Origin: Naegleria gruberi
Taxonomy: Eukaryota
DNA length: 7,596 nucleotides
NCBI GenBank assembly: GCA_000004985.1
Contig: GG739016.1
Direction: 5' to 3' (one strand)
In this document: positions 1,631-7,576 of the stretch, in pieces
Layout of the letters: each line of letters opens with the position of its first letter
Position numbering within the stretch: position 1 is the stretch's first letter
Made by a program: the position numbers and the translations under genes
Notes under the pieces: model-generated
What the model was told of the DNA's origin: nothing
The model's input: the letters and a program-made list of their open reading frames with translations, nothing else
The model's database searches: none

Positions 1631-2764
1631 ACTTTGATGACATGTGTCTTTTGGTTCTTGGTTGCCCTGGGTAGACCATCACATCTATCGCAACCTAACA
1701 CAAGTAAATGTGGTGGTGAAAATCTTTTTTCATTTAACCCTTCTACAAACAACAATATTTAAACCGGTTAGTTTTTATTTAAATTTTCAAATTTATTAAT
1801 TAATAATTTGTAAATTAATGTTGGAAAATATAAAGGAATTTTGTTGTGAAAAAGTCCAAACAAATATGTTCTGTTGGTAACAAACACGGGTGCTGTTTAG
1901 TTGACATAAGTTGCCAAGAGTGGTTTATTGGGTGAGAATGTTGTTACTTATTCTAACAGCAATGCTGCATTGACTTTTACTGGTTGTGTTGTTATGGTTG
2001 TCGCAACTCTGTTCTTTTCTCTTTGGATGTATTAATGACAGGAGATGAGATTTTGTTCACCATTCAAACATGGGAAGAAAATCACTTGACCAACACTTTT
2101 GAAATCAAGATTGATCAACAAATTGCTGGAAATGGAAGCTTGTTTGAATTCTTCTCCATCTGTTGTTCCATCAAAGGAAATTGATGATCCAACTGATAAG
2201 AAGCCACTTGGTTGGGTTGATGAAGAATTAATGGATGATCCAGAAGCCAGTAAGCTGGAAGATTGGGATGAAACATTGTCAAGAGAAGAAGAATTTATTT
2301 CAGATCCAGAAGATAACATGTTGGAGGATTGGTTAGAAAATGAACAAGACATGATTCCAGATTCAGAAGCCAAAATGTTGGAATGGGATGAGGATGAAGA
2401 TGGTGCTTGGGAAACTCCAATTGTTGGGAATAAGAAGTGTGAAACTCAACCAAGATTGATTAAAAATCCAGCTTACAGGGGTAAATGGGTTGCTCGAGAT
2501 TAAGAATTCAAGTGTTTGGGCTTCAAAGAAAATCTAAATCCAAATTATTTTGAAGATAAGTAGCTATCAAATCTGTCTGGAAGGATTGGTGTTGTTTTTA
2601 CTGAAATCTGGACCATGCAACAAAATACCTTCTTTGATAACTTTATCATTGCTCACGTTCAGAAAGTTGCTGATTTACAATTGCCAAGATTAATTCAAAC
2701 ACCAACTTTTATTCGTTCCAACCTGTATCAAAGGGTGTTCAGTTGTAGCCTGTGTTGCTTGTGA
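1631..2764 (+). pseudogene. Calnexin-type (calnexin/calreticulin family) ER lectin chaperone pseudogene; intronless, frameshifted, with in-frame stops
   Basis: Collinear similarity to the calnexin luminal domain is recoverable across three reading-frame segments. N-lobe remnant: ...NTSKCGGENLFSFNPS, cf. the conserved CGG-[AG]-YVKLF motif (about 1703-1760). Mid section: [50 protein letters not shown] (frame 1, 1984-2150), cf. calreticulin NYKGKNVLINKDIRCKDDEFTHLYTLIVRPDNTYEVKIDNSQVESGSL. P-domain (frame 2, 2160-2500) has four motif-1 repeats, [10 protein letters not shown] / SKLEDWDE / NMLEDWLE / [11 protein letters not shown], cf. KPEDWDE and KPEGWLDDE. These are followed by motif-2 repeats [17 protein letters not shown] / [11 protein letters not shown] / NLNPNYFED, then GRIGVVFTEIWTMQQNTFFDNFII, cf. 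calnexin NPDFFED...AIGLELWSMTSDIFFDNFII. Four motif-1 repeats plus a Cys in motif 2 indicate the calnexin type rather than calreticulin. The calnexin and calreticulin reference sequences are recalled from memory. Disruptions: stops at 1628 and 1760, a frameshift near 2143-2160, an in-frame TAA at 2501-2503 and TAG at 2561-2563, and an N-terminal lectin lobe that is truncated or unrecognisable. Confidence 0.7.
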
Positions 2765-3164
2765 TGGAGAAACCACAAATGCAGGTGCAGGCTTGACAAA
2801 TGAAATTACCAATACTAATACTCAACAATCACAATTTCTAAAAATATTTTGTACAGGCAAAGTATTGACAATCTTGATTCTGATACTTTCCAGGCAACAA
2901 ATTTTGATGGTGTCGATGATACCATTTTCATTGTCAATATGAACATTTATAACAACAAACCAACGCTCACAACTGCATTAACAATGGCTTCTGGTTATTC
3001 AGTGGATGCCATCTTTTTGACTTCTACTGACTCATTTACTGAAGCAAACATTCCTTCTGCTGATAGAATTGATTTCTCCCTTATCAGTACTGCTTAGCAG
3101 CAAAAGACACTGGTGAAAAGTTCGTTCCTTAAGTTCGTTCGATGTTGGGAAGTGCATTTTCCAT

Positions 3165-3431
3165 TCAATACACTGACATATGGAGGACTAAAGTCCTCAC
3201 ACCTGCATTTGCTACCAACTCAAGGAGCTGCATTAATTGTTTGAATACACCATCCAAATCAGTGACAACATAAGCAAAGAGCTTCACTTGTTGAGAAACA
3301 CATGGAGCTGAAATTTCCATTGATGCAGCAACAATCAGTGCCAACTCACTAAACACTTCCCTGTCAAGCGCAATGCAAGACAGCAGGTACTCCTTATTCA
3401 ATTCTGCTGCTGATTCCAATGGGACTCTCAA
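3165..3431 (-). other. Stop-free protein-like fragment on the minus strand (about 100 aa, no ATG start). A possible terminal exon or a remnant of a decayed gene
   Basis: The translation ...LNKEYLLSCIALDREVFSELALIVAASMEISAPCVSQQVKLFAYVVTDLDGVFKQLMQLLELVANAGVRT has a globular, helical-looking composition, unlike the low-complexity shadow ORFs. It is bounded upstream by TAA. I recognise no family. Confidence 0.2.
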
Positions 3432-4774
3432 TATTAATCTCCTTGCAATCCTTCTGGAACTAATCCATTAACTCTAGTGGAGCTTCCGTCTTTTTCCAAA
3501 TGGCTGGTAAGAGAGTTCAAACTGCACCTATACCATTTCTGATAATTTGTCTGCATCTGGACTGAGACTATCTATCAACCATCCAATTTACAAGTTGGTA
3601 ATGATACATTCACATATTCAGTAGCTGATACATTGGACATTTCTGCGTCGTATGCATTGCAGTGGAAATTACAAGGACTCAAACAGATCCATTTGATCAA
3701 ATTTATGGTGTTCATTGGATATGGTGTGGTTGCAATTTCACAGATGTAGGTACATGACCTGCTCTATAGGAACTGACTGTGTTGGAACTGACAAAATCGT
3801 TCTTAAGTATCACGTTGGTCTTGGTGCCAACAAAATTGCTGCAACTGTCAATATTTACAACTCGAAAGTCATGTTGAATGAATGTGGAGTGGTTTTGTTT
3901 TTGATAAGGAACAAAAACTTTTTTGTTCTTTCAACCTCTGTATGGTCTGTTGTCAGGAATGGTGGAACTTTTCTATGCTTGCTTCATCAGATGCTAATGG
4001 AAATTCCTTGTTGGCTTCAATTAGGAGCATTGTTCACTGTTGTTTGTGGTTTTTCTGCTCACATTACGTCCCAACAAGTGGTTTCATTGGAAGAACTGGT
4101 CTTGCCTTTGTTATGGTCCGCACTGTTAAACATCAATTGCCTTCTGTATAGAGGGGTTCTGATGGGTTGTTGTGAAATTCACTGAAAGTGATGTCAAATT
4201 TGTTTCCACTGTGATTCCAGAATTTGCCAGAGTTGGGATTTCTGCAAATCAAGGAGGAATAAGGTAACATATGATCGTGGTGTACTTGTTTTGCCAAGAG
4301 CTGTGAAATTCTCTTGACGTGACCAAAAAAACCCCTAATCAATCCCAGATGTCCAATTGTTGAGTTGATCTTTAGGATGACTTGAACAGTACAAAATGTT
4401 TCGTTTGGTTGGTTTGTCTGTCACTTTACGAAATTGCATTCATATCTTGCTCATGATGCTCCTCGTTGCCTCACTTGTTGAAGAGAAATTTATTTATCGA
4501 ATCACACAGGACGCCAACTGCTTGTGTGCAAAGCAGATTGTTTTGGTAACGATGCTCGAATCTGATTGCAATCTTCATAGGAATGAGAGGATGAGTGTGA
4601 AGAAATTGCCAAATCATCAGCCAATGCATTTATTAAGCATACGACGAACTCAACTGAGATGCTGTTCTCTCACAGTTGGGCAAATGAATTAGTAACGATA
4701 CTGCATGGCAAATAACAACTCATTAATGGGAGTGGTGAGGTGGTGTTCAACAAAAACAAAGAGCAGCATATTTT

Positions 4775-4785
4775 AAAAAAAAAAA
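4775..4785 (+). promoter_or_regulatory. A11 homopolymer immediately 5' of the transposase initiator ATG (aaaaaaaaaaacaATG): A-rich leader / initiation context
   Basis: Seen in the sequence. The same A-run-then-ATG arrangement recurs at 399-410 and 7306-7315. Confidence 0.3.
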
Positions 4786-4787
4786 CA

Positions 4788-7292
4788 ATGACTCTCTCTA
4801 CTATTGAGAGTTTATTTTCTGTGACAGGTAATGGACAAACAAACACACTTGTTTCTCCATCTGCAAGAATCAGCAGATACAAAACAATCAAAGACTTTGT
4901 TAACATCACCAAGAAACATGGCAATAACAAAGAATTCACTCTAAAAGAATCTCCAATGCAGAAATATTGTTCCAAAGTGGGAGATACATTTTTGTGTCAA
5001 CAAAGAAATAGCAAAGGTAATTCAACAAGTGTGTGTGTTGATGTTGGTGTTGCCAATTTTTCTTCCATGATGTTTAGTGAATCTTTTTTAATGGTCCAAC
5101 CAAAAAAACAAACAAACAATGACACATCCTTGGTGGATTTATTGTCATTGTTCAACATGTTGACACATACATTGCGAGATGAGACAGTTTATGAATTGTT
5201 GTTGCAGCTTTTTTCAAATGATATTGACTTATTCGAAACCTTTTGTAAAGATTTACAAAAGAGAAACGAAAAAGTATCTTCATTATTCATTGCTTTTTCT
5301 GTAAATGTGGTTTCATTTAATTCTTACATCCTTTTGCAAAAAGATAGAATGCGAATTTCAGATAGTCTTTACCATGAGATTCGAATTAGATTCTTTCTTG
5401 AAAAATATTTACCTCCCTTAGATGACTTAAAAGACACAAGAAAAGAAAAAAACATAGAAGTGCTTGGCTTTTATGATGTAAATATTAGATCTGTCAGTTA
5501 TGTAGCCAGTGTTCAGCATGAAAAAGAGCAGATATATGAGGACATTGATGAGCCAGAGGATGCCTGTGAAGATACTTGTCAAAATATTTGTCAAGATAGC
5601 TGTCAGAATATTTCTTCAAATCCTACACAAGACAACCAATCGTCCAACAGTGTTGGTGTTGCAATGAGTATGTCGAGTAATGTGTTGAATGAATCACCTG
5701 TGACGGTAAAAGGAAATAAGAAACAAACGACAGTCGTGTTTGTTAAAAATATTACAAAATTGGTAAAGAGTATTTTGAAATTGGAATTAATCGAAACCAT
5801 CAATAGACAAACAAAAGGAAAAGTTATTTCTGAGAACGATATGGCTTTTTTGGAAAAAGCAACAAAAGAGGCCATTATGAGTTATGGAATGGATCAAAAG
5901 GGTCTTAATGGTTTGACAGTTTTGGGTGTATCTATGCGAGGTTCTAGAGTTTTTAATGCTCAATGTCCCTTTTCAATAATTCCATTGGCCCTATGGAATG
6001 GTAAGGAAAAAGATATTTTATTTATATCAAACATTATAAGGGCAGAGCTTGATGAATTGCGTAAACAGGTAGTGGTTATTGAATACAATGGAAAAAATTA
6101 CAAGTATGAATTAAAAAACAAACTTGTTACTGATTTGTCTGCGTTTAAATATTTAAATGGATGGAGCAGAATTAATTGTCCATTTTGTGATTGTCCAAAC
6201 GCACATAGTTCAATTAAACAGGGATGCACTGTTGTGGAAAGGTCTGGTAACACAGAAATTTCAAATTGTTTAGGATTTGATCATACTGATTTTATAATTT
6301 GTTATTTACATTTACTCGAAAGAATCATTCAACATCTATTAAGGCTTAGTTTAGGTACAGCAGAAGAAAATTTCGATTCTATGGTAAAAGAAATTCAAAT
6401 GGTTTCAACATTAAGAAACTTGATGTTTGAACCAGATGAAAATGGAGATTACAATTTATATCTCACTGGTGACCAATGTGAAGCTCTATTGCAAGGACGT
6501 GCTAAATTTTTTAAAAATTGTCCAAAACATATTCAAGAATTATGGAACGAAGGCAATCACATTCTTGATATATTCAAAAAAGGGCTGAGCAATGGCGATT
6601 ATCAAGATTTCCAATTATCTCTTGATCGTTTCTTCCAGAAATTTAAAAAGTATTCAACAATAGGAAGCTGGTATGTTCACATAATTATGTATCATGGGGT
6701 TGCTTTGTTAAAAACGTATGGAGGCTTGTCAAAATGGAGTGCAGAAGGTTTTGAACATTTTCATAGACTTCTTGAATATATTTTGGAAAATTGTGTGCAA
6801 CATGGAACAAATACAAAAGAGTACTGGTATTTGATGCTTAAAAAACCAACAAAGCCGAGTGATTATCCTCCCCTTCCAACCAAGAATACAGAAATACTTT
6901 CATATACTGACATGGAATTTAGCAGTGATAATCTCAAAAATCCCTCAGAAGAGAGATATGGTAGAAAAGATTTTGGTTGTTCTATTGAGATCTCTGCTGG
7001 GTTAAAGTTGGCTCAAATTTTGGCCTATTTTTTAAGATGTATTCAGTTAACTTTGGATTTGGATGAGTCTTGGAATAGGATTGAGAACAGAACAACAAAA
7101 ACAAAAGAGGAAGAATTTAAAAGAAAGATCGAACTGAACAACAATGAATTCTCAACCAATCCAAATGTTGATGGAGTTAATTCTTGGATAAAGGTTAAAA
7201 GGGTCAAACATTCTAAACAAACAACTCACATTGAAAGCCAACAGGAACAAACCATTCCAACATCTGCCTACAACAAGTTCTATACTTTATAA
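4788..7292 (+). CDS. Transib-superfamily (RAG1-like) DDE transposase; apparently intact, intronless ORF (834 aa from the first ATG; the track ORF starts earlier at a GTG)
   Basis: The translation contains, in the canonical order and spacing of the RAG1 core and Transib transposases: (1) PLALWNGKEKDILFISNIIRAELDEL, cf. RAG1 [27 protein letters not shown] (first catalytic D, nt 6012-6014). (2) VTDLSAFKYLNGWSRINCPFCDCP, cf. RAG1 GYDEK...VYICTLCD (second D at nt 6132-6134, Cys pair at nt 6177-6194). (3) DHTDFIICYLHLLERIIQHL, cf. RAG1 HSITRSHAENLERY. (4) SWYVHIIMYHGVALLKTYGGLSKWSAEGFEHFHRLL, cf. RAG1 [38 protein letters not shown] (H-x4-H zinc pair at nt 6678-6695, catalytic E at nt 6744-6746). 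(5) EYWYLMLKK, cf. RAG1 HHWLYTSKYLQK. The RAG1 sequence is recalled from memory, not from a database search. The ATG at 4788 has an A-rich leader. The ORF ends with a double TAA stop. Confidence 0.8.
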   Translation: MTLSTIESLFSVTGNGQTNTLVSPSARISRYKTIKDFVNITKKHGNNKEFTLKESPMQKYCSKVGDTFLCQQRNSKGNSTSVCVDVGVANFSSMMFSESFLMVQPKKQTNNDTSLVDLLSLFNMLTHTLRDETVYELLLQLFSNDIDLFETFCKDLQKRNEKVSSLFIAFSVNVVSFNSYILLQKDRMRISDSLYHEIRIRFFLEKYLPPLDDLKDTRKEKNIEVLGFYDVNIRSVSYVASVQHEKEQIYEDIDEPEDACEDTCQNICQDSCQNISSNPTQDNQSSNSVGVAMSMSSNVLNESPVTVKGNKKQTTVVFVKNITKLVKSILKLELIETINRQTKGKVISENDMAFLEKATKEAIMSYGMDQKGLNGLTVLGVSMRGSRVFNAQCPFSIIPLALWNGKEKDILFISNIIRAELDELRKQVVVIEYNGKNYKYELKNKLVTDLSAFKYLNGWSRINCPFCDCPNAHSSIKQGCTVVERSGNTEISNCLGFDHTDFIICYLHLLERIIQHLLRLSLGTAEENFDSMVKEIQMVSTLRNLMFEPDENGDYNLYLTGDQCEALLQGRAKFFKNCPKHIQELWNEGNHILDIFKKGLSNGDYQDFQLSLDRFFQKFKKYSTIGSWYVHIIMYHGVALLKTYGGLSKWSAEGFEHFHRLLEYILENCVQHGTNTKEYWYLMLKKPTKPSDYPPLPTKNTEILSYTDMEFSSDNLKNPSEERYGRKDFGCSIEISAGLKLAQILAYFLRCIQLTLDLDESWNRIENRTTKTKEEEFKRKIELNNNEFSTNPNVDGVNSWIKVKRVKHSKQTTHIESQQEQTIPTSAYNKFYTL
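5565..5612 (+). repeat. Imperfect 12-nt tandem repeat x4 inside the transposase ORF (tgtgaagatact / tgtcaaaatatt / tgtcaagatagc / tgtcagaatatt), encoding CEDT-CQNI-CQDS-CQNI
   Basis: Read directly from the sequence. It is in frame and sits in the N-terminal, non-catalytic part of the ORF. Confidence 0.8.
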
Positions 7293-7305: not shown

Positions 7306-7312
7306 AAAAAAA
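7306..7312 (+). promoter_or_regulatory. A7 run immediately 5' of ATG 7313
   Basis: Seen in the sequence; the same arrangement as at 4775-4790. Confidence 0.25.
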
Positions 7313-7576
7313 ATGGGCAAAGAAGATGTTGTTCTTTGCAACAATAACCACACTGTCAATCTACGTTCTCAAAAAAATAACTACATCAACAAATTTAAAA
7401 AGAAATTTAATGATGGTTCGGAAGATGGTGTATTCTTGGAAACTCTTGGAAAAGCAAAATTCAAAAAAACAAATAGTAATTGGGATACAAATATCAACCA
7501 TACAACGTTTATGATAAATGACAACGGACATCCTGATGTTGTTTTCTTGAAGCAGTTTTTAAAAAATAAATTTTGA
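7313..7576 (+). CDS. Small hypothetical ORF (87 aa) starting 20 nt downstream of the transposase stop. It could be a second element-encoded ORF or spurious
   Basis: An ATG preceded by an A7 run (aaaaaaaATGg). The frame is open for 87 codons and ends with TGA. It is Lys/Asn-rich with no recognisable motif. Confidence 0.25.
   Translation: MGKEDVVLCNNNHTVNLRSQKNNYINKFKKKFNDGSEDGVFLETLGKAKFKKTNSNWDTNINHTTFMINDNGHPDVVFLKQFLKNKF

Follow-up and report, generated by a model that had tools for sequence, protein, structure and literature searches.

The DNA analysed here (the window) makes up an entire scaffold of Naegleria gruberi, 7,596 bp long, small and unplaced, with a GC content of 34.6%. The fragment and the ORFs described below lie on its plus strand. 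We found that a calnexin-homologous fragment occupies positions 2092-2674, and that GenBank annotates a 123-aa "predicted protein [Naegleria gruberi]" (P0001) at 2132-2503. Upstream lies a 320-aa ORF with an acidic N-terminus (386-1348); downstream lie an 834-aa ORF (4785-7292; P0040, a GenBank protein of N. gruberi) and an 87-aa ORF (7313-7576). The ORFs adjoining the fragment are uninterrupted and free of introns over 0.96 and 2.5 kb. Neither the 320-aa nor the 87-aa ORF gave a detectable family in the libraries tried. The neighbouring ORFs and the stretch 2700-4800 matched nothing in Pfam, and the ORFs also matched nothing in NCBIfam, PHROG or PDB.

The 834-aa ORF was without a match in Pfam, NCBIfam, PHROG, PDB and IMG/VR. 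We observed that it has a 92%-identical paralog (P0041) on another N. gruberi contig of 10,176 bp. Inspected by eye, its motifs CPFCDC, DHTDFIICYLHLLERI and GGLSKWSAEGFEHFH are presumably reminiscent of tnp2/DUF4218-type (CACTA/KDZ) transposases; an AlphaFold model of its core reached a pLDDT of 39.7, too low for use. Runs of 8-11 A residues were seen at 399-408, 1384-1391, 4775-4785 and 7306-7313, and at all four sites a candidate ATG stands at the run or no more than about 80 nt downstream of it. The run at 1384-1391 leads to an ATG at 1391, which opens a frame of only 39 codons and may be all that is left of the start of a dead gene lying before the calnexin fragment. A viral or foreign origin of the fragment was considered and set aside: neither the fragment nor the two neighbouring ORFs had a relative in IMG/VR, and the composition of the fragment (35-37% GC) is host-like.

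A reading of the locus from its sequence alone (the sequence-only reading) had taken it for a decayed calnexin copy, and profile searches bear out the similarity. The stitched translation, in which the frames are joined across the frame breaks, matched the Pfam Calreticulin family PF00262 with E = 5.9e-54 and 183.8 bits (cut-off 25) over profile positions 173-369 of 369. The best solved structure was calnexin (1jhn, 4e-36), followed at a distance by calreticulin (2e-16). A calnexin HMM of 547 positions, for which 76 full-length cluster representatives were aligned, was also run with the filters off against the six reading frames of the window. It matched only 2089-2154 and 2150-2674, covering profile positions 196-398 of 547 with E = 3.9e-52, and no other match was found in any of the six frames even at E <= 100. 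A custom-written frameshift-aware alignment of profile to DNA gave 217.9 bits over 2092-2674 (profile positions 197-398 of 547). On the evidence of Pfam, PDB, our HMM and the frameshift-aware alignment, the fragment spans the final lectin strand on the N side, the complete P-domain arm and the lectin strands on the C side.

The P-domain architecture described in the sequence-only reading was recovered. Translations and the codon table place four motif-1 (KPEDWDE-type) repeats at 2180-2224, 2231-2272, 2297-2338 and 2354-2395, and within this array lies a direct repeat, D1, with 66-nt spacing (2219-2339). Alignment to the calnexin profile places four motif-2 (GxW..P.I.NP.Y) repeats, partly deleted, at 2402-2557, and the FFDNFII strand of the lectin domain was located at 2630-2650 by structure match, translation and frameshift-aware alignment. 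As in calnexin (PF00262, 1JHN), four repeats of motif 1 precede four of motif 2 in the fragment, and the lectin strands NTFEIKID and FFDNFII flank them. Calreticulin, including the N. gruberi protein D2V0Z9_NAEGR, belongs to the same Pfam family and shares the P-domain architecture, but it has three plus three repeats and scores far below calnexin. Judged by its sequence, the fragment is therefore a member of the calnexin/calreticulin family and of the calnexin subtype, since it has four repeats of each motif and calnexin scores ahead of calreticulin. The low calreticulin score in the comparison with solved structures also argues that the fragment is not a copy of the HDEL-ended calreticulin D2V0Z9_NAEGR.

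The copy had been drawn at 1631-2764, with collinearity to the mature protein over roughly 1.1 kb. We found homology only over 2092-2674, about 0.58 kb, so that the interval as first drawn is too large by about half; as far as the searches used here can tell, 1631-2091 and 2675-2764 carry no demonstrable calnexin signal. For 1631-2091 this was the outcome with Pfam, our HMM and frameshift-tolerant alignment. Pfam gave no match in the three plus-strand frames of 1350-2100, and frameshift-tolerant alignment of profile positions 1-200 to 1350-2095 scored 15.1 bits, against 13.6 +/- 1.8 for shuffled sequence (11 of 60 shuffles reached at least 15.1). The sole upstream piece collinear with the fragment is QTWEENHL at 2065-2088, which is below threshold. 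The resemblance of KCGGENL at 1706-1726 to DKCGEDY, and other upstream matches picked out by eye, were considered as an N-terminal half and found unsupported by Pfam, tblastn, the HMM and frameshift-tolerant alignment. Accordingly, a complete lectin domain was not found: its N-terminal half (profile positions 1-196) was missing from the scaffold by six-frame HMM, Pfam and frameshift-tolerant alignment. Beyond 2674 there was no HMM match, and the downstream frameshift-aware score was 13.0 against 10.5 +/- 1.2 for shuffles, a comparison of low power because the tail is poorly conserved. Unlike calnexin, then, the fragment amounts to about 37% of the protein, with no signal peptide, N-terminal lectin half, anchor or tail detected.

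We found no uninterrupted reading frame across the homologous region. It is broken by three frameshifts and a nonsense codon, in agreement with the earlier count of at least four breaks. Translation and frameshift-aware alignment place the first frameshift at about 2153 (+1; 2149-2158), where TTCTTCTCC has gained 1 nt or lost 2 nt; the second at about 2499 (+1; 2495-2499); and the third at about 2534 (-1; 2534-2537), which returns to the earlier frame. One of the frameshifts falls within a short TTC/TC repeat. The frameshift-aware alignment further shows an in-frame TAG at 2561-2563, and the annotated ORF stops at a TAA (2501-2503) that arises only from the second frameshift. In addition, the motif-2 repeats have lost about 6 residues and about 4 residues in frame (profile positions 315-322 and 337-345), and the first of these deletions takes out the second cysteine of the arm tip (GCG), so that the tip cysteine pair is broken.

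All three frameshifts and the TAG are present, in identical form, in an independent ENA metagenome contig (L002; k127_383843, 2,804 bp, sample ERZ929261) that encodes the exact 123-aa product. Exact-protein look-ups returned no independent contig besides this one. Aligned over window positions 1993-4718, the two sequences are about 1% diverged, with 25 substitutions, mostly transitions (21), and with four indels (1, 76, 2 and 1 bp). Since the same lesions occur in an independent contig they are not assembly errors, and since they are common to both sequences the inactivation is older than the split between the two. The description of a decayed calnexin copy with a mutated P-domain was therefore right in this respect, the disablements being genuine, and the mis-assembly that had been offered as a fallback explanation is excluded by this contig.

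Within the fragment the window and the metagenome contig differ by two substitutions only, AGT/GGT at 2511 and GTT/GCT at 2592. Both are nonsynonymous and at both the metagenome contig keeps the calnexin-consensus residue: the window copy is drifting now. There are no substitutions over 1993-2510, compared with 1.1% divergence downstream. The contrast between 2 of 682 and 23 of 2,053 positions is not significant (Fisher p = 0.06), nor is a gap of at least 518 nt among 25 events improbable (p ~0.13, a scan statistic calculated from substitution counts). The lack of substitutions over 1993-2510 may speak against pure neutrality, although not significantly.

Several further observations concern the metagenome contig and the stretch that follows the fragment. 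The contig shows that a public metagenome holds Naegleria-like DNA about 1% diverged from the scaffold. Its ends correspond to window position 1993 and to about 4718, the latter some 65 nt before the start codon of the 834-aa ORF, as expected of a repeat boundary near a multi-copy ORF. The roughly 2 kb at 2700-4730 (625-2804 of the contig) are 98.9% identical between the two; an indel of 76 bp lies at 3057, and small ones lie at 2703, 3094 and 4228. The longest ORF in this stretch is at most 156 aa, Pfam gave no match in six frames, and the plus-strand translation contains repetitive ...NIYN.../...LNIN... patterns; this is perhaps another decayed gene.

The near-invariant proline of KPEDWDE had been said to be replaced in three of the four repeats, and the codons confirm it: the proline is kept in the first motif-1 repeat only, and repeats 2-4 have leucine (CTG at 2255, TTG at 2321, TTG at 2378). 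The loss extends beyond these repeats. At columns at least 80% conserved among the calnexins, 10 of 18 prolines were lost, against a mean of 1.3 and a maximum of 5 in working calnexins. At the same threshold 44 of 48 non-proline residues were kept; the loss of four compares with a mean of 3.45 in working calnexins, and the difference between prolines and other residues is significant (Fisher p = 1e-4). At columns at least 90% conserved, none of 28 non-proline residues and 7 of 13 prolines were lost (p = 7.6e-5). The mean identity of the fragment to the 76 calnexins is 44%, compared with 51% among those calnexins (189 aligned columns). On these alignments the decay is slight apart from the disabling lesions and the proline loss, and the low TpA/ApT ratio of the fragment, given below, points the same way. 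Compared with calnexin, the fragment shows four breaks of the frame, the deletion of one tip cysteine and the replacement of more than half of the conserved prolines.

The retained prolines are all encoded by CCA, and the replaced proline codons now read TCA (four), CTG, CTA, TTG, CGA, AGA and AAG, mostly changes of CCA to TCA or CTN. We considered mutational causes of this pattern. RIP-like hypermutation was rejected: TpA/ApT is 0.34 in the fragment, compared with 0.54-0.69 in two intact ORFs and both flanks, and (CpA+TpG)/(ApC+GpT) is 2.09, the opposite of the RIP signature. One-strand C-to-T hypermutation fared no better. Third-position C is 0.20 against 0.24-0.27 in intact ORFs, with no clear synonymous depletion of C; the CAA/CAG glutamine codons of the fragment are, by eye, still intact; and there is no plus-strand C/T excess among the changes between the window and the metagenome contig. 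Nor had conserved Asp, Gly, Trp, Glu and Cys codons suffered matching G-to-A losses. Most simply, a divergent gene of calnexin type would have had its prolines replaced with the remainder of the arm still under selection, and would have been inactivated only recently. A strand-specific mutation process, and not a selected phase, could nevertheless lie behind the proline loss.

We then looked for a parent or close relative. With the fragment as query the sole Naegleria protein retrieved was its own 123-aa ORF, in a word-indexed search from which a parent less than about 50% identical could escape; the next matches were fungal calnexin exons at about 50% identity. A HMMER scan of 1.84 billion cluster representatives returned none with more than 60% identity to the fragment. 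The best named representative was a Histomonas calnexin (60%), followed by Mallomonas and other scattered eukaryotes, and no Naegleria was among 30 representatives looked up by name. In JGI metagenomes the best identity to the fragment was at most 52%, and a profile search placed no Naegleria among the best 120 of 6,014 matches. As N. gruberi proteins are in the searched database, a near-identical parent would be expected if an extant N. gruberi gene had been copied. In the literature we found no intact N. gruberi calnexin, only the calreticulin D2V0Z9; the HDEL-ended calreticulin D2V0Z9_NAEGR is given for this species in table S15 of PMC10903960. The best-scoring representative (P0042) belongs to an intron-containing calnexin gene of an AT-rich eukaryote (metagenome contigs L003-L007, 28% GC), and it has LMDDP, WLENE and RLIKNP in common with the fragment.

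The intron-free collinearity of the locus had been put forward as a hint of a processed pseudogene. Over 583 nt the absence of introns is uninformative, since the neighbouring ORFs are intron-free over 0.96 and 2.5 kb; intron density in N. gruberi is described as moderate (PMC3174169). Like processed pseudogenes, the fragment is intron-free, 5'-truncated and disabled, but no poly(A), significant target-site duplication, 3' end or identified parent accompanies it. There is no run of seven or more A residues between 1392 and 4324, so that no poly(A) relic is present where the homology ends on its 3' side; among the 30-mers of 2660-3400 the highest count is 16 A. As to flanking direct repeats, which had been suggested as a check, none of at least 14 nt was found. 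The longest repeat from flank to flank is the 9-nt ATTCAAACA at 2062-2070 and 2693-2701. Its position at both borders of the fragment is suggestive; its length is at chance level, being reached in 47 of 300 shuffles (16%), and no A-tract precedes the 3' copy. We also considered 2071-2692 as an insert in a host gene and rejected this, as excision between the 9-nt repeats joins a frame of only about 50 codons.

How the fragment arose is not directly readable, because a retrocopy, or a partial duplicate made at the DNA level whose ends were lost later, would have the same appearance as a relic decaying in place. Reverse transcription of a calnexin mRNA, followed by 5'-truncated insertion and decay, would account for the lack of introns and the missing 5' end, since 5' truncation is usual in many LINE-made copies, and the repeat at 2062 and 2693 fits it. 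Retrocopies, however, usually keep the 3' end of the coding sequence, and here the membrane anchor and tail were undetected. Together with the missing A-rich tract, the chance-level repeat, the normality of intron-free stretches of 0.96-2.5 kb in the window and the failure of the fragment to retrieve a parent protein, this leaves the retrocopy without positive evidence, and we regard it as unlikely. That a piece of an extant calnexin gene was copied at the DNA level into a repeat-rich region, by partial duplication or transposon capture and possibly by the neighbouring multi-copy element, is unlikely too, if slightly less so. It agrees with an internal fragment lacking both ends, with the neighbouring 834-aa ORF having its close paralog on another scaffold, and with the metagenome contig stopping just short of that ORF. 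Against it, neither terminal inverted repeats nor target duplications were found around the fragment, the 834-aa ORF has no recognisable transposase domain and its model is unusable, and the search with the fragment turned up no extant donor.

Two further explanations would leave the locus alive. It is scarcely credible that the gene works and that its frameshifts and stops were introduced in sequencing or assembly. In favour of this are the small size and unplaced state of the scaffold and the short repeat in which one frameshift falls, but all four lesions recur in a contig that differs from the window at 25 substitutions and 4 indels, and neither the N-terminal lectin half nor the membrane anchor was detected. 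It is also very improbable that 2132-2503 encodes a mini-protein still in use, made up of a P-domain arm poor in proline. This stretch is annotated as a protein, is identical in the metagenome contig against 1.1% divergence downstream, and retains its conserved non-proline residues. Its frame, however, begins inside the arm and so has no signal peptide; homology is still recognisable past the stop (2504-2674), which indicates a recent truncation; the difference-free stretch is not significant; and the tip cysteine pair is broken. The 123-aa protein is an artefact of ORF calling on a pseudogene.

Our results thus support pseudogene status for the fragment, an ordinary one with no function today. 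With somewhat more confidence than doubt, we interpret the locus as the recently inactivated, doubly truncated relic of a divergent calnexin-type gene, decaying in place. It resembles unitary or relic pseudogenes in its host-like composition, in the small amount of neutral decay outside the disabling lesions, and in that the searches retrieved no close intact counterpart. Its ancestor would have been a gene of divergent calnexin type in N. gruberi, whether a paralog or the calnexin proper of this lineage. This gene would have moved away from other calnexins mostly while it was still selected, and the arm probably lost many of its prolines then. Constraint would have been lost late and the small indels and the stop codon acquired, and the 5' and 3' parts were probably also lost late, at the DNA level, by deletion or rearrangement. 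On this reading the locus is not a reverse-transcribed mRNA copy. What would remain is a 583-nt relic of the middle third only, on a scaffold with orphan ORFs and one multi-copy ORF.

Kinetoplastids carry out glycoprotein folding control with calreticulin alone. By analogy, the fragment might be the last remnant of Naegleria's own calnexin, recently lost after a phase in which most conserved prolines of the arm were shed and all other conserved residues stayed under selection, so that calreticulin alone would control glycoprotein folding. We consider this improbable, to a degree between the duplicate and the retrocopy.

The significance of the locus is mostly a matter of housekeeping: the GenBank/UniProt entry is not a chaperone, and this "predicted protein" with a calreticulin-family domain should be left out when chaperones are counted to compare ER quality control between species. 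That a P-domain so well preserved otherwise is eroded at its prolines only is relevant to the question of which arm residues can be dispensed with, or to mutation bias in the N. gruberi genome. If the genome has no other sequence of calnexin type, the fragment would date a loss of calnexin in Heterolobosea.
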